Positions 10,013 to 25,118 of a stretch of DNA of 64,000 nucleotides are shown here, piece after piece. The notes under the pieces were generated by a model. That model was given only the letters and a program-made list of their open reading frames with translations, searched no databases and was not told the DNA's origin. Position 1 is the stretch's first letter. Each line of letters begins with the position of its first letter. The stretch lies in assembly GCF_002087085.1 (NCBI RefSeq), contig NZ_MWQY01000002.1:1-64000 (forward strand), read 5' to 3'. Made by a program: the position numbers and the translations under genes.

Positions 10013-10020
10013 CACTCTAT

Positions 10021-10088: not shown

Positions 10089-11438
10089 ATGAACATTCTT
10101 GGAGTCGACATCGGTACCACCTCGATGAAAATGGGGGTTTTTACCACCGATAAGGACGGAAATCTTGAACAGGTGCGGGAGTATTCGGAATCCTATCCCG
10201 TAAATGTCTACAACAACGGTACCTTCGGGGATATCGAGCAGGAAAAATGGGAGAAGGCCTTCCGCAACGGCTGCCGGCAAATGGCGGACCTGATGGGGGG
10301 AATCGACGCGGTATCCCTTTCCGGTACGACCCCGGGCTTAAGCGCCATGGACGCCGATGGAAAAGCGACCTATCCGGCCATCCTGATGCTGGACCAGAGA
10401 TCCCGCAAGCAGGCCGCCGATATCATCCGGACCGTTGGTCTTCAGAAAATTCTGGATGAAACCTCCAATATGCCGGTCGCCGGAGGCTGTTCCCTGGCGA
10501 GTATCCTGTGGATCAAGGAAAACGAACCGGAGGCCTACGAAAAGTCCGTATGCTTCGGCCATTCCAACACCTACATAGCAAAATGGCTCACCGGCTCCTT
10601 CGCCATCGATCCCTCCTCCGCCTCCCTGAGCGCCCTGTACAATACAGTACGGAACGATCTTACCTGGAACAAGGAGATCGCCTCGGCCTTCGGGTTGTCC
10701 GTCGACCGCCTGCCGAAGGTTATTCACTCCTATGACAGCGCAGGAAACGTCAAGGCGGACCTTGCAGCGGAACTGGGTATGACCAAAAAGCCCCCGGTAA
10801 TAATCGGCGGAAACGACGCGGTACTGGCGGCCTACGACGCCGGGGTAAACGAACCGGGTCAGATGATCAATGTCAACGGTACCTGCGAGATCAGCCTTGT
10901 CTGTCTGCCCAAATGTTACCCCTCCACGGAATACAATATACGGGCCCATGTGCTTCCCGACCGCTGGCTTACCCTCTACGTCATGAACGCAGGAGGCAAG
11001 GCTTTTGAGTGGTTCCAGCAGCTCTTCTGCTCCGAGATGACCCCCGACCAGTTCTGGTCGGACTTTATGCCCGTCGCCATGGAGAAATGGCTGACCCGGG
11101 AGAGCAATGTACGCTACACCCCCTATCTGATGGGATCCCGTTACTCCCTGGAACCCCTGAAAGCCGAGTTTACCGGCATGAACCAGGAATCCGACCGGGA
11201 AGAACTCCTTGCAGCCATGGTCCGGGGTCTCTGCGAATATCAGCGGGAGCACCTCAAGGAGATCTCCCTGGAGATCCCCATTTCAAAGGAGATCTTCGTA
11301 ACCGGCGGTGCGGTTAACGACATTCTGATTGAAGCAAAAAAACAGTGGATGCGGGACAGCAGCTACGTCTATCGTGACCAGTCCTCCCTTCGCGGAGCGG
11401 CCCTTCTGGCCCGCAAGCACCTCGAAGGTGAACTGTGA
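10089..11438 (+). CDS. FGGY-family carbohydrate kinase
   Basis: LGVDIGTTSMK, LDQRS, GGND, TGGA motifs. Confidence 0.88.
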   Translation: MNILGVDIGTTSMKMGVFTTDKDGNLEQVREYSESYPVNVYNNGTFGDIEQEKWEKAFRNGCRQMADLMGGIDAVSLSGTTPGLSAMDADGKATYPAILMLDQRSRKQAADIIRTVGLQKILDETSNMPVAGGCSLASILWIKENEPEAYEKSVCFGHSNTYIAKWLTGSFAIDPSSASLSALYNTVRNDLTWNKEIASAFGLSVDRLPKVIHSYDSAGNVKADLAAELGMTKKPPVIIGGNDAVLAAYDAGVNEPGQMINVNGTCEISLVCLPKCYPSTEYNIRAHVLPDRWLTLYVMNAGGKAFEWFQQLFCSEMTPDQFWSDFMPVAMEKWLTRESNVRYTPYLMGSRYSLEPLKAEFTGMNQESDREELLAAMVRGLCEYQREHLKEISLEIPISKEIFVTGGAVNDILIEAKKQWMRDSSYVYRDQSSLRGAALLARKHLEGEL

Positions 11439-12184
11439 GTGTGGCAGGCAAAACCGTCCTTGTAACCGGGGCGGGAGCCAATATCGGCCGGGCGATAGCT
11501 GAACTTTTCGCCCGGCAGGGGGCCCGGGTGGCCATAACCACCCGATCCAATGCCGGGGGAGGAGAAGCCGCCGCGGAGGCTGTTCGCCGACAGGGCGGAG
11601 AAGCCCTCTTTTTCGCTGCCGACCTGACCGACGAAAACCAGGTTGACCAGCTTTTCCGCCGCGTGGAACAGAGCTTCGGTCCCGTGGAGGTGCTTATCAA
11701 CAACGCCGGCGCGGCCCTTCCCACCCCCTTTCTCGACTCCGAAGTCAGCCAGTGGCGGAATGTTTTCGAGATCAACTTTTTTACCGCCCTGAACTGCTCC
11801 CGCCGGGCAGCCCCTGGAATGATCGACAAAGGCAAAGGGTCAATAATCAATACCGTCTCGGTCCGGGGTTTCGACCATACCGGCCGGGAGGGGATTATGG
11901 CCTACTCCGCGGCCAAGGCTGCCCTGATCAATTTTACCAAGACCCTGGCCAAAGAGCTTGCACCTGGGATCTGCGTAAATGCGGTATCCCCCGGTTTTGT
12001 CCTTACCTCCGCTTACGACACGGCGCCGGAGGAGGTAAAGAAGGGCTTTATCGAATCCACAATGATCAAACGCTGGATACAGCCGGAGGAACTGGCGGAA
12101 GCATACCTCTACCTTGCCGGTCAATCTGCAGCAACCGGGACAGTCCTCGGTGTCGACGGCGGCTTTCTGCTCAAACAGGCCTGA
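11435..12184 (+). CDS. Short-chain dehydrogenase/reductase
   Basis: TGAGANIG, NNAG, YSAAK; GTGA overlap. Confidence 0.9.
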   Translation: MSVAGKTVLVTGAGANIGRAIAELFARQGARVAITTRSNAGGGEAAAEAVRRQGGEALFFAADLTDENQVDQLFRRVEQSFGPVEVLINNAGAALPTPFLDSEVSQWRNVFEINFFTALNCSRRAAPGMIDKGKGSIINTVSVRGFDHTGREGIMAYSAAKAALINFTKTLAKELAPGICVNAVSPGFVLTSAYDTAPEEVKKGFIESTMIKRWIQPEELAEAYLYLAGQSAATGTVLGVDGGFLLKQA

Positions 12185-12221: not shown

Positions 12222-12269
12222 TTGCACACTTCAGTTTTGTACGATATCATACAATTGGAACGATTCAAT
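12222..12269 (+). promoter_or_regulatory. Sigma70 promoter plus LacI-type operator
   Basis: TTGCAC (12222)-N17-TATCAT (12245); ATTGGAACGATTCAAT at 12254-12269. Confidence 0.75.
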
Positions 12270-12291
12270 AACCACATTTCTGGAGTTTTTA

Positions 12292-13026
12292 ATGGCGAAA
12301 AAGATAATTATAACCGGTGCCAGTACCGGAATCGGGGCTGAGACTTCCCGTATGCTGGCCCCGGGAAACGAAATCATTGTACACTACTACTCTTCCAAAG
12401 GTCCGGCGGAAGCCGTTGCCGCGGATATCGAAAAAGCGGGAGGAAAGGCCCACCTGCTTCAGGCTGACCTTTCAAAATCCGATGAATGCGAACGCTTTGT
12501 CGCTGAATGCGCCAAACTGTTCCCCGTTGTGGATGTCCTGGTCAACAATGCCGGCGGTCTTATTCGGCGCCAGCCGATAAACGAACTGGACTGGGATTTC
12601 ATGATCGAAACCTTCGCCCTGAATACCTTTTCCACCATGAAGGTTACCTCCCTCTGCGTACCCCTGCTGGAAAAGGCGGAAGATCCGGTTATCATCAACA
12701 TGACCTCCATTGCCATGCGCCACGGTGCCCCCTCCGCCACCCTCTACGGAGCATCCAAGGGAGCCCTGGATACCTTTACCCGCGGGGCCGCCACGGAGCT
12801 GGCACCGAAGAAGATACGGGTAAATGCGGTAGCCCCGGGAGTCATCGAAACCCCCTTCCACGAAAAGGTCTCCACCCCGGAAAAGATGAAGAGCTTCAAG
12901 GAGAATACGCCCCTTAAGCGGAACGGCCGGGCCCGGCATATCGCCCAGGCTGTCAAGTATCTTATCGAGAACGACTTCATGACCGGCGCGACGGTGGATG
13001 TAAACGGCGGGCTGTTCATGTACTAG
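12292..13026 (+). CDS. Short-chain dehydrogenase/reductase
   Basis: TGASTGIG, NNAG, YGASK; start at MAKK after GGAG. Confidence 0.9.
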   Translation: MAKKIIITGASTGIGAETSRMLAPGNEIIVHYYSSKGPAEAVAADIEKAGGKAHLLQADLSKSDECERFVAECAKLFPVVDVLVNNAGGLIRRQPINELDWDFMIETFALNTFSTMKVTSLCVPLLEKAEDPVIINMTSIAMRHGAPSATLYGASKGALDTFTRGAATELAPKKIRVNAVAPGVIETPFHEKVSTPEKMKSFKENTPLKRNGRARHIAQAVKYLIENDFMTGATVDVNGGLFMY

Positions 13027-13064
13027 GGGTCAGTACAGACCGTAAAAAGCCATCGGCGGCAGTA

Positions 13065-14132
13065 TCAGGCGCCGATGGTTTTTTTTTGCCCCGGGTTCAA
13101 CTTTTCGGCGGTTCCGCAGGACTCCCGTATCGCAAGCCGGGGAGTTATCAGTATCCGTTCCGGGGTTCCCGGATTCTCAATCAGTTGCAGAAGAAAACCC
13201 GCCGCCCTCCGGGCTATGAGTTCCGGAGGAATGGCAATGGTGGAGAGGGAGGGAGTCCACAGCCTGGCTTCGGAGATATCGTCGAAACCAATGACGCCGA
13301 AATTCCGCCCCGGCTGAATACCCTTTGATCGCAGCCCCAGCATGACCCCCAGGGCTATAATGTCATTATAGCAGAAGGCCGCCGTGGGAGGATCGGGACG
13401 GGACACCAGTTCCCGAATGGCCGCGTAACCTCCCCAGCGGCTCCCCTGGGCGGTGACCATTAATTCCGGATCCGGGCTGTAACCATACTTGTCAAAGGCG
13501 ATCCGGAATCCCTCCAGCCGCTCAGGCCGGGGCGACGAGCCGTCCTCGCCTCCCACAAAAGCGATTCGCCTGTGGCCTGCCGCAAGCAGACGTTCCACCG
13601 CCATGGTCGTACCCACGACGTTATCGGCGCCCACATAATTCCCCGGATAATCGCTGAGATAGCGGTTTATAAATACCGAAGGAACATTACTGTTGACCAG
13701 AGGACCCAGATCTTCCCGGGTGGAAAACCTGGCGGGACTGATAAGCAGCCCCTCCACATTATGTTCGAGGAGGGTGGAGATGGCCTTTCTCTGACGTTCC
13801 GGGCTCTCGGTCGTATTGGCGAGCATAACGACGATTCCCTCCGGTTCGAGACACTCCTCTATTACCGGCACCAGCTCGGCAAAGAAGGGGTTACCCAGAT
13901 CATTGATGAGGACCCCGACAATAAAGGAGCGGCTGGTCCGCAGGTTGGCGGCGGTACGATTGTAGACATATCCAAGGGATTCGCTTGCCGCTTTTACCAG
14001 GGCCGCGGTCTCCTTCGTTATAAGGGGGCTGTTTTTCAGCACAAGAGAGACCGTCGACTTTGAGACCCCCGCCTCCCGGGCGATATCCTTGATCGTCACC
14101 CTTCTCTTGGTTTTTCCTGTCTGCCGGTTCAC
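13065..14132 (-). CDS. LacI-family transcriptional regulator
   Basis: VTIKDIAREAGVSKSTVS HTH, YNDIIALG, GFDD. Confidence 0.93.
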   Translation of the reverse strand: MNRQTGKTKRRVTIKDIAREAGVSKSTVSLVLKNSPLITKETAALVKAASESLGYVYNRTAANLRTSRSFIVGVLINDLGNPFFAELVPVIEECLEPEGIVVMLANTTESPERQRKAISTLLEHNVEGLLISPARFSTREDLGPLVNSNVPSVFINRYLSDYPGNYVGADNVVGTTMAVERLLAAGHRRIAFVGGEDGSSPRPERLEGFRIAFDKYGYSPDPELMVTAQGSRWGGYAAIRELVSRPDPPTAAFCYNDIIALGVMLGLRSKGIQPGRNFGVIGFDDISEARLWTPSLSTIAIPPELIARRAAGFLLQLIENPGTPERILITPRLAIRESCGTAEKLNPGQKKTIGA

Positions 14133-14153
14133 CCTACAAATACCTTCTTTGAA

Positions 14154-14169
14154 ATTGGAACGGTGTAAT
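14154..14169. promoter_or_regulatory. Degenerate LacI-type operator upstream of lacI (autoregulation)
   Basis: ATTGGAACGGTGTAAT, 13/16 identical to the 12254 site. Confidence 0.55.
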
Positions 14170-14280
14170 TCTATGCTCCCATAAGCGAACTGTCAATAAA
14201 TAAAAAACCCAACTTGAACACATTATCCGGAAGCTTAAACTAAAAATAGTACAAAATTGCAGTACTGAAAAACAATTTTC

Positions 14281-14329
14281 TTGACAGCAACCAAAACCCC
14301 TGCTATCGTTTTCATTGAATCGTTCCAAT
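14281..14329 (+). promoter_or_regulatory. Sigma70 promoter plus LacI-type operator of the radical-enzyme operon
   Basis: TTGACA (14281)-N17-TATCGT (14304) with extended TG; ATTGAATCGTTCCAAT at 14314-14329 is the exact reverse complement of the 12254 site. Confidence 0.78.
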
Positions 14330-14378
14330 CCAATGCACGAAAGAACTGTGCACGGAAAAATTAACAGGAGGACTATTC

Positions 14379-15392
14379 ATGAAAAAGATTGTTGGACTGA
14401 CTCTCGCACTGATGCTGATCTTCAGCCTTGCTTCCTTTGCGGAAGGCGGAAAAGAGAGCGGAACACCTGAGTCCATTACTCTCGTCGGCGGCGTCATGCT
14501 TCCCAAGGGACATGTATACTATCAGGCAATGGAAAAGTTTGTTGAGCTCCTCGATGAGTACTACACCGGTCCCATCGAACTGAAGTACGAACTTCACCAC
14601 TCCGGCTCCATCGGAACCGAAAAGGACATGTTCGAGTTCATGATGCAGGGAGTTTCCGTAGACTTTGCGGTTGTATCCCCCGCGTGGGCCGCAACCTGGG
14701 ACAAAACAGCCCCCATCATCGACGCACCCTTCCTTTTCAGGAGCATCGAGCACTGGGAACAGTCCCTTGAAGCCGGCGCCCTCGACTCTATCGCGGAAAC
14801 CATTCGGAAAAAAGGCGTCCGTTTCATCGGTTACGGCGGAGGCGGAGCCCGCAGCCTGATCCTGAATCAGCCGGTCAGCAGCCTCGAAGACTTCGGCAAG
14901 ATCGACCTGCGGGTCCAGGGTTCCCCCCTGCACGCCGCGGTATTCGGCGCCATCGGCCTGAACCCCACTCCCCTGGACTATACCGAGGTATATAACGCCA
15001 TAAAAACCGGTGTTGTCGACGGTCTCGAGAACGAACCCGCCGGACTTGAGGGCATGAAATTCTACGAGGTCGCTCCCTACTATGCTCTTTCCGAGCATCA
15101 GATCACCACCCGTATCCTCTGCTTCTCCGAGTCTAGACTTCAGAGCTTTCCCCAGGACCTGCAGGATGCCATTATAAAGGCCGGACTCGACGCCGGACGC
15201 TGGCACCGCAAGGCGGAAGTGGCTCTGGGACAGCAGATCATAGACAAACTGGTAGCCGGCCATGGCCTCAAGGTAATCGAGTTTACCAAAGCGCAGAAAG
15301 ACGAGATGGCCCGCAGGGCAATGCCGGAAGTAATGAAGTACGCCGAAGAAGTCGGTGCCACCGATATCGTCGAAACAATCCAGAATCTCTAG
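14379..15392 (+). CDS. dctP: TRAP substrate-binding protein
   Basis: Signal peptide, DLRVQ, EVYNAIKTGVVDGLENE. Confidence 0.9.
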   Translation: MKKIVGLTLALMLIFSLASFAEGGKESGTPESITLVGGVMLPKGHVYYQAMEKFVELLDEYYTGPIELKYELHHSGSIGTEKDMFEFMMQGVSVDFAVVSPAWAATWDKTAPIIDAPFLFRSIEHWEQSLEAGALDSIAETIRKKGVRFIGYGGGGARSLILNQPVSSLEDFGKIDLRVQGSPLHAAVFGAIGLNPTPLDYTEVYNAIKTGVVDGLENEPAGLEGMKFYEVAPYYALSEHQITTRILCFSESRLQSFPQDLQDAIIKAGLDAGRWHRKAEVALGQQIIDKLVAGHGLKVIEFTKAQKDEMARRAMPEVMKYAEEVGATDIVETIQNL

Positions 15393-15415
15393 AGATTAAG
15401 CTTTTCACCTTACCC

Positions 15416-15443
15416 GCAGGCCGGAGGACTCCGGCCTGCTTTT
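15416..15443 (+). terminator. Stem-loop after dctP
   Basis: GCAGGCCGGA-GGAC-TCCGGCCTGC-TTTT. Confidence 0.65.
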
Positions 15444-15467
15444 CCATTAATTCAGAGGAGCAAACCG

Positions 15468-16025
15468 ATGCCCTTGAAACTGTTTGATCTGTACGCGAAA
15501 TTCCTTATCCGCGTAATGATTGTCCTGATGTTCATCCTGCTGGGCGCCGTCGCCCTGACTGTTGCAGGCCGCTACATACCCTTTATTCCCCGCTTCCTGT
15601 GGACCCTGGAAGTCACCAACATATCCCTTATCTGGATGGTTTTTGTGGGCTCGGTAGTCGGCCTCAGGGAATCCCGGCACTTCTACATCGATATCTTCGC
15701 CGGCGGAGTCCCTCCATGGTTCGAAATGTTTCTAAAAATTCTCAACTATTTTGTTACGCTGACTGTCACCTATGTATTTGTCCGTTACGGATACCGCTTT
15801 TTTATGCAGTGGGGACTGATCCAGACCTCTGAGCTTACCGGTATAAATCTTGGTTTTCTCTATGCCTCGGTCCCCTTTGCCGGCGTATCATGGCTGATAT
15901 TCTTGATTGAGAGGTTTTACCACGACTTTATAAAAAAGGACCAGACGGAAGAACACCACATGGCCGATTCCTACCAGGTCCATCACGAAGATGAAGACAC
16001 TAAAGAAGGAGAAACGGACAAATGA
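15468..16025 (+). CDS. dctQ: TRAP small permease
   Basis: Four TM segments, WTLEV, RHFYID; lies between dctP and dctM. Confidence 0.85.
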   Translation: MPLKLFDLYAKFLIRVMIVLMFILLGAVALTVAGRYIPFIPRFLWTLEVTNISLIWMVFVGSVVGLRESRHFYIDIFAGGVPPWFEMFLKILNYFVTLTVTYVFVRYGYRFFMQWGLIQTSELTGINLGFLYASVPFAGVSWLIFLIERFYHDFIKKDQTEEHHMADSYQVHHEDEDTKEGETDK

Positions 16026-17326
16026 CAGCTGGAACAGTCGCCGCGATAATGTTCATACTGCTTATCGTCCTCATTATTTTACGCGTTCCGGTCAGTTTTA
16101 CCCTGGCCTTCGCCGTTGTACCTATTCTTTTGCTCACTCCCAGGGTCTCGCCGCTCATGCTGCTGCAGCGCATGATGGTTCAGTACGGGTCCTTTCTGCT
16201 ATTATCGATACCCTTCTTCTTACTGGCCGCTGTCATCATGAACGAGGCCAAGATCACCGACCGGCTGATCAGGTTCTCCCGCTCCATGGTGGGACCCCTT
16301 CCCGGCGGTCTTGGCCACGTTAATGTTGCGGTAAGTATGCTCTTTGCAGGTATCTCCGGTTCCTCCAATGCGGATGCCGCCGGTATCGGTTCCGTACTTA
16401 TTCCCGCCATGGAGAAAGAGGGCTACGACAAGAACTTCACCGTAGCCGTTACAGCCTGTTCGGCGGTAATGGGAAACATCATTCCCCCAAGTATTACCAT
16501 GGTTGTGTGGGGCGGGGTCATGAGTACCTCCGTTTCCGGGCTCTTTCTGGCCGGCTTTGTTCCCGGCGTAATGATCGCCCTCTTTCAGATGGCCCTGGTA
16601 CTCTACTTTGCCCTCAAGCGGGGATATCCCCGGGACGCGCGATTCAGCATAAAGGAATTTATTCAGAGCTTTCGCGGAGCAATCCTGGCCCTGGTTACAC
16701 CGCTGATTATCGTCGGCGGTATCGTCTTCGGAATCGTTACCCCCACCGAAGCTTCCATGGTGGCGGTTATCTACTCCCTTTTCCTGGGTATGTTCATCTA
16801 CAAAACCGTCTCCTTCAACAAGTTTGTCGGTCTCATGCTGGATACCGCCAAGCTGGCTTCCATCGTGCTCTTTGCCGTAGGAAGCGCCTCCATATACGGC
16901 TGGGTCCTGGCCTACTACAAAATCCCGAACTTCCTGGTTGACGTTCTCGGCGGTATTACGACCACACCCTCCCTGATGCTCATGATCTTTGTGGGAATTT
17001 TCCTGCTGGTGGGAACCTTCATGGACTCCGTTCCCGCCATCGTCATCCTCGGGCCCCTGCTCGCTCCCATTGCAGAGCATGTCGGGATACACCCCCTTCA
17101 CTTCGCCATCGTGGGAGTTGTCTCCCTGGCCTTCGGACTGGTAACCCCTCCCTACGGGCTCTGCCTGCTGATATCCAGCGAGATCGCCGGGATTAACGCC
17201 ATGCGTCCCCTCAAGGAGGTCGGACTCTTCCTGCTTTCCATGCTGGCGGTATTGCTTCTGATCATATTCTTTCCGTCCCTGACCCTGGCTATTCCCCAGG
17301 CCTTCATGCCGGAACTCTTTTTATAG
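16022..17326 (+). CDS. dctM: TRAP large permease
   Basis: SIPFFLLAA, GISGSSNADA, IIPPS, TPTEA, VTPPYG. Confidence 0.93.
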   Translation: MTAGTVAAIMFILLIVLIILRVPVSFTLAFAVVPILLLTPRVSPLMLLQRMMVQYGSFLLLSIPFFLLAAVIMNEAKITDRLIRFSRSMVGPLPGGLGHVNVAVSMLFAGISGSSNADAAGIGSVLIPAMEKEGYDKNFTVAVTACSAVMGNIIPPSITMVVWGGVMSTSVSGLFLAGFVPGVMIALFQMALVLYFALKRGYPRDARFSIKEFIQSFRGAILALVTPLIIVGGIVFGIVTPTEASMVAVIYSLFLGMFIYKTVSFNKFVGLMLDTAKLASIVLFAVGSASIYGWVLAYYKIPNFLVDVLGGITTTPSLMLMIFVGIFLLVGTFMDSVPAIVILGPLLAPIAEHVGIHPLHFAIVGVVSLAFGLVTPPYGLCLLISSEIAGINAMRPLKEVGLFLLSMLAVLLLIIFFPSLTLAIPQAFMPELFL

Positions 17327-17332
17327 ACTGTT

Positions 17333-18859
17333 ATGAAAGATAAAATACTGAGCGCCGAAGCCGCCGTCGCCCTCATAGGGGACGGCGCACGGGTTGCCCT
17401 CCACGGTTCGGGGGGCGGCATCTGTGAACCCACCCTGCTGTTGAAGAAGCTGGGAGAACGCTTTCAGAAAAACGGAAACCCAAAGGGAATAAGCATTGTC
17501 CATTCCACGGGCATAGGCAACAAGGAGGGCACCGGAATCGACCTTATCGCCTTTGCGGGCCTTGTCAAGCGTGACATTGCAGGACATTTCGGGATGTCCC
17601 CCAAAATGGGAGAGCTGATCCTGGGAAACCAGGTGGAGGCCTATAACTTTCCCCAGGGGGTACTCTCCCATATGTTTCACGCCGTGGCTGCCAGAACACC
17701 GGGGGTCATTACCAAGATAGGCCTCAACACCTACGTGGACCCGCGCCTCGAGGGCGGAAAGGCCAACGATCTCGCCACGGAAGACCTGGTAAAGGTCATA
17801 GAACTGGATGGCGAAGAGTGGCTCTTCTTCCCCCGCTTTGAGTTCGACTTTGCCTTTGTCCGGGGAACCACCGCCGACCTTAACGGAAATATAACCAATG
17901 AGGAAGACGGGCCCTTTCTGGAGGGGATGGCAATCGCCCAGGCAGTCAAAAACTGCGGAGGGACGGTTATAGCCCAGGTCAAGTATCTGGCTGAGAACGG
18001 AACCCTGGACCCGCAGCAGGTACGTATCCCGGGAATCTACGTCGATCATATCGTCGTGGATCCCGAACAGACCCAGACCTGTCTGCACAGCTACGAACCC
18101 TCCTTTGCCGGGAAGGTCCGGATTCCCCTTACAAGGATGGAACCCCTGTCCCTGGGACCGAAGAAGATTATTGCCCGGCGGGCGGCGAAGGAACTCTTCG
18201 AAGGAGCCATCGTAAACCTTGGATATGGCGCACCTGACGGAGTGGCAGCCGTGGCTTCCGAAGAAGGCATCCTGGACAAGTTTACCCTGACCGTCGAACA
18301 GGGATCCATCGGCGGACGTCCCGCGGGGGGCGTAGTCTTCGGCACCGCCTACAACCCGGAGGCCATAATTCCCATGGACGCCCAGTTCACATTCTACGAC
18401 GGCGGCGGGCTGGATCTGGCCTATCTTGGCATGGCCCAGGTCGATCAGCACGGGAACGTCAACTCCAGCCGGGTCGGACGCATGCTCGCAGGCTGCGGAG
18501 GCTTCATCAATATTACCCAGAACGCAAAAAAGGTGATCTTCTGCGGGACCTTTACTGCCAAGGGGCTCAAGTGCTCCGTGGGAGACGGCAAAATCAGCAT
18601 CGACCAGGAAGGTTCGGTACGGAAATTCGTGGACCGGGCGGCCCAGATCACCTTCAGCGGTGATTACGCCGGCAGCCTCGGACAGCCGGTACTCTATGTC
18701 ACGGAACGGGCGGTTTTTTCCCGCAGCCCGGAAGGGCTGATGCTGGAGGAGATTGCCCCGGGAGTCGACCTTGAACGGGACATTCTGGCACATATGGATT
18801 TCAAGCCCCTTATTTCACCGGATCTGAAAGAGATGGACCCGGACTTCTTCCGGGAGTGA
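17333..18859 (+). CDS. Family I acyl-CoA:carboxylate CoA-transferase (YdiF/propionate CoA-transferase-like, fused)
   Basis: EAYNFPQG, GLNTYVDPR, VNLGYG, catalytic TVEQG, GCGGFINITQ, YVTERAVF, EIAPGVD. Confidence 0.9.
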   Translation: MKDKILSAEAAVALIGDGARVALHGSGGGICEPTLLLKKLGERFQKNGNPKGISIVHSTGIGNKEGTGIDLIAFAGLVKRDIAGHFGMSPKMGELILGNQVEAYNFPQGVLSHMFHAVAARTPGVITKIGLNTYVDPRLEGGKANDLATEDLVKVIELDGEEWLFFPRFEFDFAFVRGTTADLNGNITNEEDGPFLEGMAIAQAVKNCGGTVIAQVKYLAENGTLDPQQVRIPGIYVDHIVVDPEQTQTCLHSYEPSFAGKVRIPLTRMEPLSLGPKKIIARRAAKELFEGAIVNLGYGAPDGVAAVASEEGILDKFTLTVEQGSIGGRPAGGVVFGTAYNPEAIIPMDAQFTFYDGGGLDLAYLGMAQVDQHGNVNSSRVGRMLAGCGGFINITQNAKKVIFCGTFTAKGLKCSVGDGKISIDQEGSVRKFVDRAAQITFSGDYAGSLGQPVLYVTERAVFSRSPEGLMLEEIAPGVDLERDILAHMDFKPLISPDLKEMDPDFFRE

Positions 18860-18869
18860 GGACCTTTTC

Positions 18870-19646
18870 ATGATTACCACTGTAAAAATCGAACTGCGCG
18901 CCCCGGTGGCGCGCATCATTTTCAGCGTTGATCCGCCGGGAAAACCCCCGGCGGTGGATTATGATGTTATCGACCAGCTGGAGGAGGCTGTAAAAGGTAT
19001 CGCCTCCGCAGGTCCCGATATTCGTCTGGTCCTTGTGGAGAGTTCGGAACCCAGATATTTTGTAGTCGGGGCCAACCTGAAGGCCCTGCAGCAGATCGAC
19101 AGCCAGAGTATCCGACCCTGGGTACGCCGGGGACACGATGTATTCAACATGCTGCAGGAACTGGAGCTTCCGGTCATCGCTGTTGTGCGCGGCTTTGCCG
19201 GCGGAGGCGGACTTGAGCTGGCCCTGGCCTGCGACTTTATCTATGCCGCCGATAATGCCCGTTTCGCCCTGCCGGAAGCAGGGCTGGGTCTTATTCCCGG
19301 CTGGGGAGGGAGTCACCGCCTTCCCTTAAGGATCGGCGCAGCCCGGGCCAAGGAGATGGCCTTCTCCGCCCGGCCGATCGATGCCGCAACTGCCTATGAC
19401 TGGGGACTGATCAACTGGTACGGACCGGAAGAGGAGCTTCAGCAAAAGCTCGAGGAGATCTCCGCAAGCATCAGCGCAAACAGCCGGATATCCGTGGCCA
19501 TGGAAAAACAGCTTATCAATTCCGCTGACAGTCCGGACAATCCCCGCATGAAATTCGAAGAGGCCGCCGCCTCCACCGCCGCCATGAGTTCCAGCGATAC
19601 CTCCCGCAGACTTGAGGAGTTTTTCGAAAAACGGCGGAAAAAATAG
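18870..19646 (+). CDS. Enoyl-CoA hydratase/isomerase (crotonase family)
   Basis: GGGGLELALACD and LPEAGLGLIPGWGG; both catalytic Glu present. Confidence 0.9.
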   Translation: MITTVKIELRAPVARIIFSVDPPGKPPAVDYDVIDQLEEAVKGIASAGPDIRLVLVESSEPRYFVVGANLKALQQIDSQSIRPWVRRGHDVFNMLQELELPVIAVVRGFAGGGGLELALACDFIYAADNARFALPEAGLGLIPGWGGSHRLPLRIGAARAKEMAFSARPIDAATAYDWGLINWYGPEEELQQKLEEISASISANSRISVAMEKQLINSADSPDNPRMKFEEAAASTAAMSSSDTSRRLEEFFEKRRKK

Positions 19647-19672
19647 CAGATTATCTACACAGGAGTCGCCTT

Positions 19673-22054
19673 ATGTCGTATCTGGACAACCCCATCCGGC
19701 TGCAGGAAGTCCGCAGTTTCTACCTTGAACGTCTTCTCAAGCCGAAGCTTACATCTGAACGGGCGGATATCGTGACCAGGTCCTATGCCCGAACCGAAGG
19801 TTCCCATCCCATAACCCGGCGGGCACAGGCCCTTAAGGACATCCTTGCCGAAATGAGCATCTACATCAAACCCTGGGAACTCCTGGCGGGCAATCTTGGA
19901 CCGGAACCCGTCTCCGCTCCGGTATTTCCCGAGGGCGGTGCCGATTTTATCCTCGAAGAGATGGACAGCTACGGCACCCGGCCGGGAGACAAGTTCGAAG
20001 TCAGCGAAGAGACAAAAACAGAGCTCCGGAGGATCCTTCCCCTGTGGAAAGGAAAAACCCTGAAGGAGTACGGCCTCTCCCTGATGCCGGAAGGTCCGGT
20101 ACGGATGCGGGAAGCCGGGGTATTCTCCGCGGAAAACATGCTCACCTGCGGTACCGGACACTTTCTGCCGGATTATACCAAGGTACTGGAGCAGGGCTTT
20201 CGCGGCATAAGCGAACAGGCTAAAGCAGCCCTTATGACCCTGGACCTGAGCCGGGAAGAGGGATACGAAAAACGCATCTTTTACGAGGCCGTGCTGACCA
20301 TCTGTGCCGCCGTCAGAGACTTCTCCCTCCGTTACGCCGAGCTTGCCGATTCCATGGCCGCTGAAGAAAAGGAGGAAGAACGGCGAAGGGAACTGAAAAA
20401 AATCGCGGAGGTCTGCCGCAGGGTGCCCTGGGAGCCCGCCGCAGGTTTCGCCGAAGCCGTCCAGAGCCTCTGGTTCACCCACCTGGTCTGTTATATCGAC
20501 TCCAACGGTTACGGCGTAACCCTGGGACGCTCCGCCTCCTGTCTGTATCCCTGGTATCGATCAAGTATTGCTTCCGGAGAGATCGACAGGGAAGGAGCGC
20601 TGGCTCTTCTTGTAAGTCTCTTTTTCAAGACAAACGACATCCTGAAGCTCTACAACAACAACGCCGCCCAGAATTACGGCGGCTTTCCCGTGGGACAGCC
20701 GGTCCAGCTGGGGGGAATCAACGCCGCCGGAGAGGACGATACCAACGAACTGAGCTTCCTCTTTCTGGAGGCGGAGAAAAAGGTAAAACTTTATCAGCCG
20801 GATATCGGCTTTCTGTGGACCGAAAAGATCAATCCCGGGTTTTTCCGGGCGGCAACGGAACTTGTGGCAACAAACTCAAAGCCCAAGTTTTTCAACTACC
20901 ATGTGGGTTCCGCCATGTACCGCCAGGCGGGATTATCGGAAGAGACTGCCCAAAAGGACTGGGCCTTTATCGGCTGCGTCGAATACGGAGTCCCGGGTAA
21001 AACCTGGACCTGGGCCGACGCCGCCATGTTCAACCTGGCAAAATGCCTTGAACTGGCCCTTAACGACGGGATAGACCCGGTAAGCGGCAGCCGCCTCGGG
21101 CCCCAGACAGGAAGCCCGGAGGACTTCAAGGATTTCAGCCAGTTTCTCTCCGCCCTGCAGCGGCAGATTGCCTACATGTTTGACCTGACGGTTCAGGGCA
21201 TAACCGCTTTACAGGTTGCCCATAAACACTGCTGGCCGGAACCCTACGAATCTCTGCTTGTAGACGGCTGCATGCAGAGCGGCAGGGAGGTCAACCAGGG
21301 CGGCGCCACATCCTACCACACAGGCGTCCAGTTCGTGGGATTCGCCACGGTGGTGGATTCACTGCTTGCGATAAAACACTTTGTGTTCGAGCACCGGAGC
21401 ATAAACTTCCGGGACCTGGTGGACAACCTTGGAGAAAATTTCAGGAATAATGAGGTACTCCGTGTACGTCTTTTGCGGGAGACCCCCCGGTTTGGTATGG
21501 ACAGGGATGATATAAACTCCCTGGCGGGAGAGGTTTTCACCTACTGCTGCGACACCGCAGGCCGTTACCGGGATATATGGGGAGGGCTCTATACTGCAAG
21601 TCTCTACAGCCTCACGGCCCATGTAGGTTTCGGCGCCCGGGTCGGGGCGACTCCGGACGGCCGGATGGCCTTCTCTCCCCTATCCGATGCCAGTTCACCA
21701 TCTCAGGGACTGCAGAACGGCTCCGTGACCGAGATCTTCACCACCCAGTCGAAGCTCCCTCACCACAAGGCCATAAACGGTACCCTGCTGAACATGAAGC
21801 TCAACAAGAAACTGCTGTCCGGCCCGGAAGGAACGGCCAGGCTGCAGAACCTTATAAGCACCTACTTCAAGATGGGAGGCTTTCATGTTCAGTTCAATGT
21901 CGTGGACGTGGAGGTTCTCAAGGATGCCCAGGCGAATCCGGACAAGTATCCAGATTTCCTGATCCGGGTCGCCGCTTACGTTACCAACTGGAATCAGCTG
22001 AGCCGGGATGTTCAGAACGAGATAATATCCCGGGCCGAGATGGAGAGTTTTTAG
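19673..22054 (+). CDS. Glycyl-radical-enzyme-family protein with Ala at the radical site (putative alanyl/aminoacyl radical enzyme)
   Basis: 793 aa GRE fold: RRAQAL, ELLAGN, GHFLPDY, GCVE (Cys435), ATPDGR, NGTLLNMK, HVQFNVVD; C-terminal LIRVAAY instead of RV(A/S)GY. Confidence 0.9.
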   Translation: MSYLDNPIRLQEVRSFYLERLLKPKLTSERADIVTRSYARTEGSHPITRRAQALKDILAEMSIYIKPWELLAGNLGPEPVSAPVFPEGGADFILEEMDSYGTRPGDKFEVSEETKTELRRILPLWKGKTLKEYGLSLMPEGPVRMREAGVFSAENMLTCGTGHFLPDYTKVLEQGFRGISEQAKAALMTLDLSREEGYEKRIFYEAVLTICAAVRDFSLRYAELADSMAAEEKEEERRRELKKIAEVCRRVPWEPAAGFAEAVQSLWFTHLVCYIDSNGYGVTLGRSASCLYPWYRSSIASGEIDREGALALLVSLFFKTNDILKLYNNNAAQNYGGFPVGQPVQLGGINAAGEDDTNELSFLFLEAEKKVKLYQPDIGFLWTEKINPGFFRAATELVATNSKPKFFNYHVGSAMYRQAGLSEETAQKDWAFIGCVEYGVPGKTWTWADAAMFNLAKCLELALNDGIDPVSGSRLGPQTGSPEDFKDFSQFLSALQRQIAYMFDLTVQGITALQVAHKHCWPEPYESLLVDGCMQSGREVNQGGATSYHTGVQFVGFATVVDSLLAIKHFVFEHRSINFRDLVDNLGENFRNNEVLRVRLLRETPRFGMDRDDINSLAGEVFTYCCDTAGRYRDIWGGLYTASLYSLTAHVGFGARVGATPDGRMAFSPLSDASSPSQGLQNGSVTEIFTTQSKLPHHKAINGTLLNMKLNKKLLSGPEGTARLQNLISTYFKMGGFHVQFNVVDVEVLKDAQANPDKYPDFLIRVAAYVTNWNQLSRDVQNEIISRAEMESF

Positions 22055-22059
22055 GCGCC

Positions 22060-23001
22060 GTGGATAATACCGTGCACAACGAAATCAGGGGGACAGTTTT
22101 TAACTGCGAAACCTTCAGCCTCCACAACGGACCGGGTATACGGACGACCCTTTTTCTCAAGGGCTGTCCCCTGCGCTGCCTGTGGTGCGCCAACCCTGAA
22201 AGCTGGAGTATGGAAGCCGAAGTCAGCTACAACCGGGAACTCTGCATCCCTGAATGCCACGAATGCGAGAAGGTTGCCGGAAGCGGCCTTCTTGAACGGG
22301 ACCGTGAGGGAAAAATTGTCATACCTCCCGCAGCCCCGCGAAGCGATCCTGCCCTTATAGCCGCTGCCCGGGCCTGCCCCGCCCGGGCGCTTTCGGTTGA
22401 GGGTTACACCATATCCGTGGACGAAGCCGCAAAGCTGCTCTGCAGGGACCGGCCTTTTTTCGAGGAATCCGGAGGCGGAGTTACCCTCTCCGGGGGTGAA
22501 CCTCTTCTGCAGCCCGAATTTTCGGCTGCGCTCCTGGGACGCCTGAAAACAGAGGGAATTCACACAGCCCTGGATACCTGCGGAGATGCTGCCCCGGAAG
22601 TATACAGGGAAGTTAGCAGTCTTGCAGACCTCATCCTCTTCGATTTCAAGGCCGCCCACAGCGGACTCCACAGGGAATGCACCGGACAATCCAACGAGAG
22701 GATTCTGGTGAACCTGGAGCAGACTGCCGCGGAACGTCCGGAGCAGCTGCGGGTACGTATTCCCTTTATTCCCGGACTCAATGGAACCGAAGGGGAGTTA
22801 TCTGCCATGGCCAGGGTATTAAAGGGACTGGGGATATCCCGGGCGGAACTTCTTCCTTACCATCGCCTGGGAATTCACAAGTACCGGCAGCAGGGCAAGG
22901 AATATACTTTGGGATCAGTGGAAATCCCGGGTTCGGAAATCCTGAAGACAGCAGTCCGTATCTGCAGGGACCTGGGAGTCGAACTGCATATACAGCACTA
23001 G
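22060..23001 (+). CDS. Radical-SAM GRE-activating enzyme
   Basis: GPGIRTTLFLKGCPLRCLWCANPES (CX3CX2C), SGGGVTLSGGEP, LLPYHRLG; GTG start inferred just after the upstream stop. Confidence 0.92.
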   Translation: MDNTVHNEIRGTVFNCETFSLHNGPGIRTTLFLKGCPLRCLWCANPESWSMEAEVSYNRELCIPECHECEKVAGSGLLERDREGKIVIPPAAPRSDPALIAAARACPARALSVEGYTISVDEAAKLLCRDRPFFEESGGGVTLSGGEPLLQPEFSAALLGRLKTEGIHTALDTCGDAAPEVYREVSSLADLILFDFKAAHSGLHRECTGQSNERILVNLEQTAAERPEQLRVRIPFIPGLNGTEGELSAMARVLKGLGISRAELLPYHRLGIHKYRQQGKEYTLGSVEIPGSEILKTAVRICRDLGVELHIQH

Positions 23002-23007: not shown

Positions 23008-23682
23008 CTAGTTCTTAACCTGGGACTCCTGGACCATATTCCCCTGGATTACCAGGGTGAGGACCCGGATTTTACTGTTCTCGATATGCCGGGTAAGCAG
23101 TTCCGAGGCTTTCTCGATATCCCGGATACAGAGGGCGTCTATCAGCTCTATATGCTCCTGGATAGTGACATCCTTGGAAAACTGCTGCCTCAGGCTCAGC
23201 TCCCAGAAGGTCTGGGTAAGCCGGTACAGCTGATCCAGCATACGGATAAGCCGCCGCCTGCCGCTGGATTGAATAAGATAGGAGTGAAAATACCCGTCCA
23301 CCCGTGCATGCTCCTGGAAGTCGAGACTGTCCTTCAACCCCAGGATAAGGGCCTTCATTTCAAGCAGCTTCTGTATGCTCAGAGAGTTTGCCGCCCTTCG
23401 CAGGGCCAGAGACTCGAGTTCCCTGCGCAGTTCGTAAATATCCTCGAGATCGTCCGCGGTAAAGGGAAAAATACGGGCTCCCCTCTTGGGAAGAATCTCT
23501 ATCAGGTGGTCCTGTTCGAGATTCTGCAGTACACTGCGCACCGGGGATCTGCTGACATTGAACTCCCGGGCCAGGAGGTCCTCCCGCAACCAGGTATCTT
23601 CAGGATATTCGTTTTGTATTATCCTGTTGAAAAGGGTGGTGTAAATTTCATGCCGAGTCGTTTTAGTATTCTTGTTTTCCAT
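23008..23682 (-). CDS. GntR-family regulator (FCD)
   Basis: VSRSPVR HTH, EDIYELRRELE, FH, EH, HIENS. Confidence 0.9.
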   Translation of the reverse strand: MENKNTKTTRHEIYTTLFNRIIQNEYPEDTWLREDLLAREFNVSRSPVRSVLQNLEQDHLIEILPKRGARIFPFTADDLEDIYELRRELESLALRRAANSLSIQKLLEMKALILGLKDSLDFQEHARVDGYFHSYLIQSSGRRRLIRMLDQLYRLTQTFWELSLRQQFSKDVTIQEHIELIDALCIRDIEKASELLTRHIENSKIRVLTLVIQGNMVQESQVKN

Positions 23683-23778
23683 AATGTCCCAACCCTAACC
23701 ATTATTACACGGCCCCGGAGTATTGTATATAAGAAAATTTTCTCTTTTTCGCGCCCATATTGATTAAATCAGGTAAAC

Positions 23779-23839: not shown

Positions 23840-23957
23840 TCAGCAAAGCTTATGGAAAATGTTTGACGTAAAGTCCATATCGTAGTATAAAGGATGTAAT
23901 ACAACCCTTTATCTCTGGGTTGTACAAATACTAAATCTTGTGGAAAAGGAGTTTTTC

Positions 23958-25118
23958 ATGCAAGGAAAAAAATGGCTAGGTAAACTTTCCATTTCTCTCT
24001 TGGTAGTGTTGTCTCTTCTTGCCGTTTCATGCGCCAAAGAAGAGCCTGCCCAGGCTGCAGCCCCCGCGGCTCCCGCCGAATCTCAGCAGGCAGCATCCTC
24101 TGAGGCCATCCCCGACATGATCGATATGACCATGCCTTCGAGTACGGTTACCCTCAGACTGGCTTACGATGACCCCACCCTCTGGCCCAAGCAGGCAAAT
24201 GTTCCCGACCCCGAGCATGCTCAGGCACTGCTCTTCAAGGACTACGTGGAAAGCCAGACCGGCGGAGCTGTCAAGATTGACCTCTACGGTGCCGGCCAGC
24301 TCGGAACCTACCGGGAAACCCTGGAAATGGTTCAGCAGGGCTCCATGGACATCAACATTGGTACCGGATCTCTCGGTTCTTTCTTTGATCCCTTCCAGAT
24401 CTTCACCATCCCCTACCTCTTCAGCTCAGACGACATCGCCGTCGGCTACTTCGAGCGGAGCGAATGGTGGGCAGACCTGATGGATCAGATGGAAGACGAA
24501 ACCGGCATGAAGTACCTCGGTATGGGTCAGAACGGCTGGAGAAACTTCACCAACAACGTACGTGAAATCCGCAAACCCGAAGACCTCAAGGGCATCAAGT
24601 TCCGCGTTATGCAGAGCCCCGTATACGTGAAGATGATCGAGTCCATGGGCGGAAGCGCTGTTCCCATCGCCTGGAACGAGCTCTACACCGCACTGCAGAC
24701 CGGTGTTGTTGACGGCGAAGAGAACCCCATCTCCTCCATCGCCCTGGGTAAACTCCAGGAAGTTCAGAAATACCTGACCATGGACGGCCACGTATGGTCC
24801 GAAAACGTCATGGTTATGAACGCTGCGAAGTTCAACGACATGCCCGTAGGCGTTCAGCAGATCCTGGTTCAGGGCGGAATGCTGGCAGCTCGTGCCAACA
24901 ACGTTGCAGAGAGAATGGTATCCAATATCGTCAAGTTCGAAGAAGTTGCCAAGCAGATGCAGGTTTACTTCCCCACCGCCGGCGAAAAGGCTGAATTCCG
25001 CAAGGTTTCCCAGCCCGCGGTTATCGAATACCTGGAAGGCGAGCTTGGAGAAGACATGGTTAACGGCTTCCTGACCAGTGTTCAGCAGATGGAAGCAGAA
25101 CTCGGTTGGAGACGCTAA
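23958..25118 (+). CDS. dctP: TRAP substrate-binding lipoprotein
   Basis: Lipobox LAVSC, Ala/Pro linker, IKFRVMQ, ELYTALQTGVVDGEENP. Confidence 0.9.
   Translation: MQGKKWLGKLSISLLVVLSLLAVSCAKEEPAQAAAPAAPAESQQAASSEAIPDMIDMTMPSSTVTLRLAYDDPTLWPKQANVPDPEHAQALLFKDYVESQTGGAVKIDLYGAGQLGTYRETLEMVQQGSMDINIGTGSLGSFFDPFQIFTIPYLFSSDDIAVGYFERSEWWADLMDQMEDETGMKYLGMGQNGWRNFTNNVREIRKPEDLKGIKFRVMQSPVYVKMIESMGGSAVPIAWNELYTALQTGVVDGEENPISSIALGKLQEVQKYLTMDGHVWSENVMVMNAAKFNDMPVGVQQILVQGGMLAARANNVAERMVSNIVKFEEVAKQMQVYFPTAGEKAEFRKVSQPAVIEYLEGELGEDMVNGFLTSVQQMEAELGWRR

Follow-up and report, generated by a model that had tools for sequence, protein, structure and literature searches.

The window, a 64,000-nucleotide stretch from the genome of a marine spirochaete, Marispirochaeta, carries what we read, with middling confidence, as a LacI-controlled catabolic regulon for an organic acid imported by a TRAP system, in which radical 1,2-elimination by an alanyl radical enzyme (ARE) would be combined with a short-chain dehydrogenase/reductase (SDR2) and CoA cycling. 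The genes concerned are as follows.

12292 to 13026, forward strand: SDR2, a classical short-chain dehydrogenase/reductase of 244 aa, start at ATG 12292
13065 to 14132, reverse strand: LacI-family repressor (Pfam LacI HTH and Peripla_BP_3)
14379 to 15392, forward strand: DctP, TRAP solute-binding protein (Pfam DctP, 8.6e-60)
15468 to 16025, forward strand: DctQ, TRAP small membrane subunit (Pfam DctQ, 2.4e-19)
16022 to 17326, forward strand: DctM, TRAP large membrane subunit (Pfam DctM, 2.2e-103)
17333 to 18859, forward strand: fused alpha/beta family-I CoA-transferase of the YdiF/Pct/FadX type (Pfam CoA_trans)
18870 to 19646, forward strand: crotonase, an enoyl-CoA hydratase/dehydratase (Pfam ECH_1, 6.4e-41)
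19673 to 22054, forward strand: ARE, a PFL-like/Gly_radical protein (Pfam, NCBIfam and alignment)
22060 to 23001, forward strand: radical-SAM activase (TIGR02494, 281 bits, cut-off 174)
23008 to 23682, reverse strand: GntR/FCD regulator, convergent with the operon and marking its 3' boundary

Seven of these genes (dctPQM and those for the CoA-transferase, crotonase, ARE and activase) form an operon at 14379-23001. The 75 nt between dctP and dctQ hold a stem-loop at 15416-15439, and the subsequent gaps through to the activase are -4, 6, 10, 26 and 5 nt, in agreement with the initial annotation, which had put them below 30 nt from dctQ onward. It had also placed lacI next to the operon in divergent orientation, as is indeed the case relative to dctP; the SDR gene and lacI are convergent. 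Pfam, NCBIfam and PDB relatives upheld its identification of a TRAP system, a family-I CoA-transferase, a crotonase, an eliminase-type radical enzyme and an activase. DctM exceeds the cut-off of TIGR00786 (376.9 bits vs. 268), and the activase carries the cluster motif CPLRCLWC and one Cys-rich insert. SDR2 matches Pfam adh_short_C2 (6.5e-50) but has no equivalog-level assignment, as all its NCBIfam matches fall below cut-off; in L005 an SDR2 orthologue (73% identity) is directly upstream of the ARE gene. Start positions needed revision. The SDR gene had been taken to begin at 12222, but that frame contains five stops, and 12222-12291 is the promoter and operator region of the gene. The activase most likely begins with GTG 22060, just past the ARE stop, rather than at 21577 or 22051. 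An open reading frame at 23086-23763 on the forward strand proved spurious, the actual gene being that of the GntR/FCD regulator on the opposite strand.

A 16-mer, ATTGGAACGATTCAAT, occurs exactly before both the SDR gene and dctP. These copies are the sole sites with two or fewer mismatches in the entire genome (4,216,685 bases, 97% complete), and a control scan with the reversed pattern returned none. Together with a weaker copy they define three putative operators.

12254 to 12269, forward strand: putative operator O1, exact 16-mer upstream of the SDR gene, just 3' of a promoter-like site at 12223-12250
14314 to 14329, reverse strand: putative operator O2, O1 repeated exactly in inverted orientation, immediately 3' of the promoter-like site of the dctP operon (TTGACA-17-TATCGT, 14281-14309)
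14154 to 14169, forward strand: putative operator O3, weaker copy with 3 mismatches, overlapping the lacI promoter-like site beside the lacI start

A promoter scan found sigma-70-like hexamers just 5' of each operator site. The motif is present at all three positions in the related loci L001 and L003 as well, and O2 is also conserved in L202. O3 probably serves autoregulation of lacI. The operator copies, the promoter-like hexamers and the conserved positions thus support the prediction that the SDR gene, lacI and the dctP operon are a single LacI regulon, in line with the earlier proposal that the SDR is co-regulated.

The radical enzyme is a GRE-fold, eliminase-type protein that belongs to the alanyl radical enzymes. 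Its motif IRVAAYVTNW stands in place of RVxG[FWY], with Ala for the radical Gly, and its Cys loop reads GCVE. The closest solved relatives are B12-independent glycerol dehydratase (1r8w), with which it aligns end to end (E 2.2e-157), and the GRE 1,2-propanediol dehydratase (5i2a, E 5.7e-145). The residues aligned to N156, H164, C433, E435 and D447 of 1r8w, including the Cys/Glu loop, are retained. In contrast, the positions of H281, S282 and Y339 are occupied by Y, G and G, and a larger or different substrate is therefore expected. All of these active-site positions are invariant across 19 orthologues. The Ala motif was found in 21 of the 22 listed sequences at orthologue level (at least 59% identity), the other one (P0002) not being a homologue, and in a tree the protein groups with the Ala-bearing sequences, which a single split separates from those with Gly. 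The activase always adjoins the ARE gene among the orthologue loci compared. Over its C-terminal 394 residues the protein is approximately 99% identical to one from Marispirochaeta aestuarii. No microcompartment or aldehyde dehydrogenase genes accompany it, unlike the 1r8w and 5i2a systems, and TRAP and CoA-ester genes are present instead.

The initial annotation had presented this protein as an alanyl-radical candidate. Ala does occupy the radical site; however, the class of aminoacyl radical enzymes has already been published by Fu et al. (2024, JACS, PMC11528403), with alanyl radical formation demonstrated for another member, and therefore the radical itself is not new. As described in the available text of that paper, the ARE and activase of Desulfoscipio geothermicus share with ours the GRE fold, the Ala at the RVxG[FWY] radical site, the conserved Cys loop, an adjoining radical-SAM activase and GRE eliminases as nearest relatives. 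The same text reports varied ARE neighbourhoods and no function, whereas the ARE here is part of a compact, LacI-controlled operon that also encodes the TRAP system, the CoA-transferase and the crotonase. The available part of a June 2026 GRE review likewise gives the function of the class as not known.

The CoA-transferase matches E. coli YdiF (2ahu) over residues 5-506 (E 8.4e-145) and gave a single tblastn match in its own genome, making it the sole one of its type found. The crotonase, the only PF00378 match in the genome, has as best solved relatives a short-chain enoyl-CoA hydratase (5z7r) and 3-hydroxypropionyl-CoA dehydratase (5zai), and its GGGLE and PEAGLG align to GGGCE and PEVGLG of these enzymes, with both acidic motif residues aligned. 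No thiolase scored above cut-off in the genome. Since these are the sole such genes and no thiolase was found, we conclude that the CoA-transferase and crotonase are not part of beta-oxidation. The one acyl-CoA dehydrogenase-like gene in the genome is an orphan outside the regulon with no ETF genes beside it, and with the lack of a thiolase this fails to bear out the earlier description of the pathway as complete. A CoA-transferase and a crotonase without thiolase or ligase suggest CoA-recycling (de)hydration, as performed on free acids by the pairs CaiB/CaiD (carnitine) and AcuN/AcuK (acrylate); E. coli YdiF and Clostridium Pct/Crt are comparable enzymes. CaiB and AcuN are family-III transferases, whereas the enzyme here is of family I, and none of these systems is tied to a radical enzyme.

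In the reading we prefer, an effector would release the repressor from the three operators, allowing SDR2 and the seven-gene operon to be made, and the TRAP system would import the acid. The ARE, activated by its radical-SAM partner, would subject the acid, or a compound closely derived from it, to a radical 1,2-elimination of the diol-dehydratase type. The product would be an oxo- or aldehydo-acid, and SDR2 would interconvert its carbonyl form and the alcohol. The CoA-transferase and crotonase would act as a CoA-cycling pair by the logic of CaiB/CaiD or AcuN/AcuK: the hydroxy- or oxo-acid would become a CoA thioester, its beta position would lose or gain water, and the next molecule would receive the CoA. 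We infer from context the order of these steps, the free acid as substrate of the radical enzyme and the substrate class, for which a sugar acid or its deoxy/keto form is the likeliest candidate. The top NCBIfam models for LacI are regulators of sugars or sugar acids (MalI, RbsR, GalS and GntR, all below cut-off). DctP is closest to 4nx1/4ovp (E 4e-64), whose ligand we take to be a uronate, no source for it having been found in the literature. Acid-sugar-dehydratase-like MR_MLE genes accompany the ARE in its L002 cluster and the CoA-transferase-crotonase modules in genomes G402 and G431. An SDR2 orthologue in G402 (64% identity) sits in an IclR-SDR-cupin-KduI-SDR-TRAP cluster beside a genuine KduI (442 bits, cut-off 250). 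The suggestion of a sugar-acid or hydroxy-acid substrate is thus plausible. However, the acids for which transferases of the YdiF/Pct type and short-chain crotonases are known range from C2 to C6, so that a CoA ester as large as that of a hexuronate would be a poor match, and the regulon lacks genes for an enoyl-CoA reductase or an aldehyde dehydrogenase.

Among characterized systems, the isethionate TRAP and sulfite-lyase are paired in one operon, coupling an importer of an anionic substrate to a GRE-family eliminase and activase. Both 8t9t and 7kq3 are among the PDB relatives of DctP and the ARE, respectively. However, DctP matches 4nx1 far more closely than isethionate-binding 8t9t (1.3e-23), the ARE matches isethionate sulfite-lyase 7kq3 weakly (5.3e-97) compared to glycerol dehydratase, and the isethionate systems have no CoA-transferase or crotonase. 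To our knowledge, benzylsuccinate degradation is the one characterized GRE pathway in which a CoA-transferase (succinyl-CoA:benzylsuccinate) and an enoyl-CoA hydratase process the product of the radical enzyme. That enzyme, an X-succinate synthase, has additional subunits and is matched far more weakly by the ARE (4pkc, E 2.8e-62); its hydrocarbon substrate is not TRAP-imported, and a full beta-oxidation set follows. The pathway is cited in the reference list of the 2026 review. The initial annotation could match the gene set to no described route, and neither our literature search nor the available part of the June 2026 review yielded a characterized GRE pathway that matches it.

Comparison with relatives bears on whether the seven genes act together at all. 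The full set occurs together only in five of six genomes of the genus and on one 1.6-kb fragment (L019), and the order CoA-transferase-crotonase-ARE-activase (gaps here of 10, 26 and 5 nt) is kept in L001, L003, L202 and L019. Five of the six fused operons belong to one genus, so they are kin rather than independent cases. The linkage that the initial annotation had made its test holds only in part: the LacI-TRAP-CoA-transferase-crotonase module and the ARE-activase pair lie apart in G401 and G402, and G431 (98% complete) has the module but yielded no ARE orthologue. These arrangements count against our preferred reading. They would fit two independent modules joined late, one being an acid unit of its own and the other, ARE-activase with SDR2, serving a different, perhaps related compound; Marispirochaeta would merely have fused and co-regulated them, and the seven genes would not be one linear pathway. 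The ARE orthologue stands alone in L004, with further GRE paralogues in L013 and L014 (in L014 also with RidA), and with other partners in L002. Operators also differ between the genus and other genomes; in G401, G402 and G431 the module contains its own (TTAGATCGATCTAA type), and none of this type was found within approximately 10 kb of an ARE or SDR2 orthologue. We nevertheless consider such a late joining unlikely. Within the genus two separate changes agree, the appending of ARE-activase and the acquisition of the same operator by the unlinked SDR2 promoter. MR_MLE and AroE-like genes neighbour the ARE in L002 and turn up again beside the CoA-transferase-crotonase pair in L186. Among 61 relatives, an ARE orthologue occurs in six genomes, every one of which also encodes an orthologue of the CoA-transferase. 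The same holds for G402, and the two co-occur in seven of the eight genomes with either. No orthologue of either was found in 400 other Spirochaetota genomes, where the best matches reach 40% and 54% identity.

The conserved gene order would also suit a radical enzyme that acts on a CoA thioester. In that case the CoA-transferase would activate the unsaturated or hydroxy acid after import, hydration by the crotonase would yield a vicinal diol or hydroxy-acyl-CoA, and the ARE would remove water from the acyl-CoA. The Gly residues at the positions of S282 and Y339 would leave more room in the pocket. However, no added CoA-binding basic residues were seen in the alignment, and loci lacking a CoA-transferase (L002, L004 and L014) contain orthologues that share the invariant active-site positions. 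In the available part of the 2026 review, "CoA-transferase" appears twice, both times in cited references, and the passages on eliminases mention no CoA ester. We judge this quite improbable; if true, it would make the ARE the first eliminase of the GRE type to act on a CoA ester. More doubtful still is a small 2,3- or 3,4-dihydroxy acid (glycerate or dihydroxybutyrate) that the ARE would convert to a 3-oxo- or aldehydo-acid and that SDR2, the CoA-transferase and the crotonase would carry to acryloyl- or crotonyl-CoA, in a reductive branch that would serve as an electron sink and have propionate or butyrate as its end product. YdiF-type family-I transferases take 3-oxoacids and short acids, SDR2 scores, below cut-off, with models for acetoacetyl-CoA reductase and FabG, the crotonase is nearest Crt and 3HP-CoA dehydratase, and the genome does have an acyl-CoA dehydrogenase-like gene; with no thiolase above cut-off, any 3-oxoacyl-CoA would need a different origin. 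However, that dehydrogenase is the orphan without adjoining ETF genes, and larger sugar acids are suggested both by the LacI family of the repressor and by the genes found nearby in relatives (MR_MLE, KduI, Gfo/Idh and epimerase-like). For a class of enzymes to which no function has been assigned, the operon of TRAP, CoA-transferase and crotonase genes with its SDR provides a testable setting.

Pfam and NCBIfam scans of the window bore out the gene list of the initial annotation, which had described a pathway of seven co-oriented genes and a co-regulated SDR around an alanyl-radical candidate. The genes are as follows.

Genes from SDR2 to the regulator that bounds the operon
12292-13026, + strand: classical SDR (SDR2)
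13065-14132, minus strand: LacI-family regulator
14379-17326: dctP, dctQ and dctM, the TRAP components P, Q and M in consecutive genes (PF03480, PF04290, PF06808)
17333-18859: fused family-I CoA-transferase
18870-19646: crotonase
19673-22054: PFL-like/Gly_radical protein, the alanyl radical enzyme (ARE)
22060-23001: glycyl-radical-type activase
23008-23682, minus strand: GntR/FCD regulator, convergent with the activase gene and divergent from a second TRAP operon

The start first proposed for the SDR gene, position 12222, had to be moved to 12292, as the frame opened at 12222 contains five stops. For the activase the most likely start is the GTG at 22060, five bases past the stop of the radical enzyme gene. 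Intergenic gaps from dctQ to the activase gene are -4, 6, 10, 26 and 5 nt, and the 75-nt gap between dctP and dctQ contains a stem-loop. The operon comprises exactly seven genes (14379-23001), because the convergent GntR/FCD gene follows the activase gene. An open reading frame at 23086-23763 (+) was considered as an eighth operon gene and rejected as spurious, since it has no Pfam hit and the GntR/FCD regulator lies on the opposite strand.

Several other gene sets share the window. The second TRAP operon (23940-27066, +) is unrelated to the first; the window holds three TRAP systems, and a tblastn search with one SBP as query gave over 20 DctP paralogues genome-wide. At 8088-12184 (+) lie a co-oriented split transketolase (N and C halves), an FGGY kinase (xylulokinase-like, below cut-off) and a second SDR. 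This set is syntenic in locus L001 and partly so in L003, lacks the LacI operator, and looks like a separate sugar/polyol pathway. At 28854-32751 (+) an aldehyde:ferredoxin oxidoreductase gene precedes genes for a fused 2-oxoacid dehydrogenase component of E1 type and for a GntR regulator; the E1 gene is syntenic in locus L202, where no match to the oxidoreductase was seen.

Sediment metatranscriptome contigs (X16-X19; four runs from three studies) are near-identical to the window over SDR2, dctP, the CoA-transferase, the crotonase and the ARE. Single contigs span the junctions of the CoA-transferase with the crotonase gene (18838-19033) and of the crotonase with the ARE gene (19358-19773), although DNA carry-over is possible. 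This cover is a weak hint of expression, as contigs are no proof of a transcript, and bins without cover, such as 13505-13925 in lacI, prove nothing.

By its sequence, the window protein is an alanyl-type aminoacyl radical enzyme (AARE), a published class. It combines a PFL-like barrel (PF02901, 7.6e-181) with a C-terminal radical domain (PF01228, 4.1e-24). In the alignment with the B12-independent glycerol dehydratase (1r8w), the fingerprint IRVAAYVTNW of this domain stands opposite VRVAGYSAQF. The catalytic glycine that glycyl radical enzyme (GRE) 1,2-eliminases carry in RVxG[FWY] is therefore absent, and alanine stands in its place. N155, H163, C435, E437 and D449 align to N156, H164, C433, E435 and D447 of 1r8w, which we take to serve in the Cys-x-Glu loop and in diol binding, the cysteine loop of the window protein reading FIGCVEYG; in place of H281, S282 and Y339 the window protein has Tyr, Gly and Gly. 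All compared positions, C435 and E437 included, are invariant across 19 ARE orthologues of 59-88% identity. The activase scores 281 bits with TIGR02494 (cut-off 174), contains the CX3CX2C motif as CPLRCLWC, and adjoins the ARE in every locus that reaches past the ARE.

The alanine is no sequencing error, because it is also present in loci L001-L004 and in most of the best 120 homologues from a large protein collection (P0003-P0122, clusters at 90% identity), among which 79 carry Ala and 40 Gly, the remaining one being a fragment that does not include the motif. A FastTree tree of 112 full-length homologues (76 Ala, 36 Gly), built without any published ARE sequence, placed the window protein among the Ala rows and the Ala/Gly label as a single change, on a separating branch of weak support (53%). 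Fu et al. (JACS 2024, PMC11528403) described alanyl, seryl and threonyl radical enzymes with stable radicals detected by EPR, among them 17 AREs, and showed the alanyl C-alpha radical for another ARE. The paper gives their functions as unknown and their gene neighbourhoods as too varied to predict reactions. A June 2026 review of GREs likewise states that no function is known for any alanyl, seryl or threonyl radical enzyme.

With 79 RVAAY homologues among the best 120, this group is far larger than the set of 17 AREs from 2024. Some of its subclades have RVAAYVAPW, VALW and VAQF motifs, and in several of these a simple pattern search did not show the GCVE loop. A Bathyarchaeia homologue (L007, 2445-4757; 34% identity), in an archaeal metagenome-assembled genome (MAG), has RVATW, a Thr-type motif, and an activase-like gene nearby. 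The Marispirochaeta genome itself encodes a second, canonical GRE eliminase (contig C34, 60537-63807; RVAGF, GCVE) that is 38% identical to the ARE and has its own activase, with a LacI-family gene and a dctP gene nearby. The ARE frame of another MAG (L002, 9968-13414) is open to 1148 codons, across the activase in another frame, which may be due to a frameshift or misassembly where the gene ends, or to a frame left open by high GC content.

The predicted operators tie SDR2 to the operon. The LacI-family regulator has a LacI HTH and a periplasmic-binding-protein fold (Pfam), and a 16-mer pseudo-palindrome centred on CG, ATTGGAACGATTCAAT, occurs as an exact copy ahead of the SDR gene (12254-12269) and as a second, inverted exact copy ahead of dctP (14314-14329), with a 3-mismatch copy adjoining the lacI start (14154-14169). 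These two exact copies are the only sites with at most 2 mismatches in the whole 4.2-Mb assembly, over which a reversed-pattern control yielded no sites. Directly upstream of each predicted operator is a sigma-70-like -35/-10 pair, and a position directly behind such a pair is the usual place for a repressor. All three sites keep their position in L001 (93% ARE identity) and L003 (about 64-65%), and both sites of the lacI-dctP spacer are kept in L202. The co-regulation of the SDR proposed in the initial annotation thus holds, with an operator copy ahead of a gene that is convergent with lacI. SDR2 and the seven-gene operon are, by these predicted operators, one LacI-type regulon.

We also examined how far the gene set is conserved. 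Alignment-based scans with the ARE gave four loci on metagenome contigs and five on genome contigs, and a CoA-transferase scan gave two; a degenerate DNA pattern for VRVAAYVA had a GRE-like hit at 5 of 116 loci among the matches listed, which were mostly chance matches. ARE orthologues of at least 58% identity are visible at 12 loci, in six of which the CoA-transferase and crotonase genes lie directly upstream: the window, L001 (the same as L012 and L018), G407 (judged by coordinates only), L003, L202 and L019, a 1.6-kb fragment ending in the first 13 ARE codons. Five of these six represent one genus. The set is therefore found together in five of six genomes of the genus, G408 being without CoA-transferase and ARE at E <= 1e-150, and in L019. 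However, it comes apart elsewhere. Genome G401 has the ARE and activase genes (L002) with another TRAP system, MR_MLE (acid-sugar-dehydratase-like), a Gfo/Idh/MocA oxidoreductase, an epimerase-like TIM barrel and an AroE-like fragment, while LacI and the divergent dctPQM-CoA-transferase-crotonase genes are on a different contig. In G402 (L004) the ARE-activase pair stands alone, a LacI module (dctP'-MR_MLE-dctPQM-CoA-transferase-crotonase-AroE-like) lies about 145 kb off on the same contig, and the SDR2 orthologue is inside an IclR-SDR-cupin-KduI-SDR-TRAP cluster. G431 (98% complete) has the LacI, dctP'-MR_MLE-dctPQM-CoA-transferase-crotonase module, and an ARE orthologue was not found in it.

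These stand-alone modules of G401, G402 and G431 carry an operator type of their own, TTAGATCGATCTAA (L186 9218-9231; L185 14305-14318 and 14477-14490; L201 3849-3862 and 6176-6189), one copy of which lies between dctM and the CoA-transferase gene. Their LacI orthologues thus appear to use a different palindromic operator. No operator of this type was found in the roughly 20-kb stretches around their ARE or SDR2 loci, nor was the Marispirochaeta operator found near the ARE and SDR2 loci of G401 and G402. Other arrangements exist: in L005 an SDR2 orthologue (73%) directly precedes the ARE, and in L013 (335-8504) and L014 (1720-7530) one or two canonical GRE paralogues of Gly type, at 33-34% identity, come after the ARE and a single activase, with RidA and TRAP genes added in L014. 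The latter two are possible multi-radical-enzyme clusters with a shared activase. At the genome level the two genes travel together: an ARE orthologue occurs in six of 61 relatives, each of which also encodes a CoA-transferase orthologue, and G402 likewise has both. Neither orthologue was found in 400 other Spirochaetota genomes (best matches 40% and 54% identity). Since the genomes are kin, this co-occurrence counts as a hint rather than as a statistical test.

Read from gene order, the window cluster is a fusion of two older modules, LacI-TRAP-CoA-transferase-crotonase and ARE-activase, and in Marispirochaeta the fused modules are wired into one regulon with SDR2.

What the companion enzymes might do is narrowed by their relatives. 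The CoA-transferase has fused alpha and beta halves, its residues 5-506 aligning to 15-517 of E. coli YdiF (2ahu, E 8.4e-145), and contains the stretch TVEQGSIGG, which may correspond to the (S)ENG-type motif with the catalytic Glu. The closest relatives of the crotonase are a short-chain enoyl-CoA hydratase from a clostridium (5z7r) and a 3-hydroxypropionyl-CoA dehydratase (5zai); its GGGLE and PEAGLG align to GGGCE and PEVGLG of 5z7r and to the same motifs of 5zai, and we assume their acidic residues to be the catalytic Glu pair. In the 97% complete genome these are the single crotonase and the single CoA-transferase of YdiF/Pct type found, no thiolase was detected above cut-off, and the one acyl-CoA-dehydrogenase-like gene is an orphan, not flanked by ETF genes, which places the pair outside beta-oxidation and butyrate fermentation. 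The simplest role for the pair would be CoA-cycling (de)hydration of a short hydroxy or unsaturated acid, comparable to the CoA-cycling (de)hydration pairs CaiB/CaiD and AcuN/AcuK. A carnitine-type C-N lyase was considered and is not backed. Neither is a quinate/shikimate reading: the AroE-like gene of L186 meets the standard model for shikimate dehydrogenase, and the Marispirochaeta genome has one AroE-like gene.

The LacI family of the regulator, the DctP relatives 4nx1 and 4ovp (the best solved ones), and the MR_MLE, KduI, Gfo/Idh and epimerase-like neighbours in related genomes together point to a sugar acid, or a deoxy or keto derivative of one, as substrate. The ligand of 4nx1/4ovp is presumably a uronate, a literature source for which was not found by identifier look-up and text search. 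The YdiF-type transferase and short-chain crotonase point instead to small CoA-level intermediates. An MR_MLE homologue of the Marispirochaeta genome (contig C25; 54-56% identical to those of L186 and L002) was rejected as part of the regulon, since it lies in a different sigma-54/TRAP/PdxA-like cluster.

The initial observation was thus confirmed and sharpened, while its interpretation as one pathway is partly supported. In the reading we favour, which we give an even chance, the ARE would perform a radical elimination of the diol-dehydratase type to yield a carbonyl acid, SDR2 would act on that carbonyl, and the CoA-transferase and crotonase would carry out a beta-(de)hydration. Because the modules exist independently elsewhere, caution is warranted toward one obligatory linear seven-gene pathway, and two functionally separate modules are conceivable; within the genus, however, the radical enzyme appended to the operon and the operator at the unlinked SDR2 promoter argue for a functional link, and we consider separate functions unlikely. 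That the ARE itself works on a CoA ester would agree with the CoA pair directly upstream; we regard this as quite unlikely. A small dihydroxy-acid electron-sink route would suit the small CoA-level intermediates but not the sugar-acid direction, and seems to us very unlikely.

A further reading is a long shot: the ARE may remove a hydroxyl beyond the reach of polar dehydratases (e.g. the 2-OH of a 2,3-dihydroxy (sugar) acid), giving a 3-oxoacid that a 3-oxoacid-type CoA-transferase, the SDR and the crotonase would feed into short-chain acyl-CoA metabolism without a thiolase. If true, sugar acids in anaerobic marine sediments would have a route of radical deoxygenation, and the regulon would be the first readable functional context of an ARE.

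The radical chemistry itself has been published; for the gene set, the literature searched gave no description and no paper that ties a GRE or AARE to it. If the CoA-ester steps truly follow or precede the radical step, the set would be one absent from any characterised GRE eliminase pathway. Fu et al. (PMC11528403) named few cultured hosts and uninformative neighbourhoods as the obstacle to assigning functions. Here the ARE is in a compact, clearly bounded operon, in a host whose ARE, over the part compared, is about 99% identical to that of a named species, with three handles on the substrate: the binding protein of the TRAP system, the LacI repressor and its defined, predicted operator, and companion enzymes that narrow the chemistry. 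The value of the operon thus lies in giving workable access to what would be the first function assigned to any aminoacyl radical enzyme.
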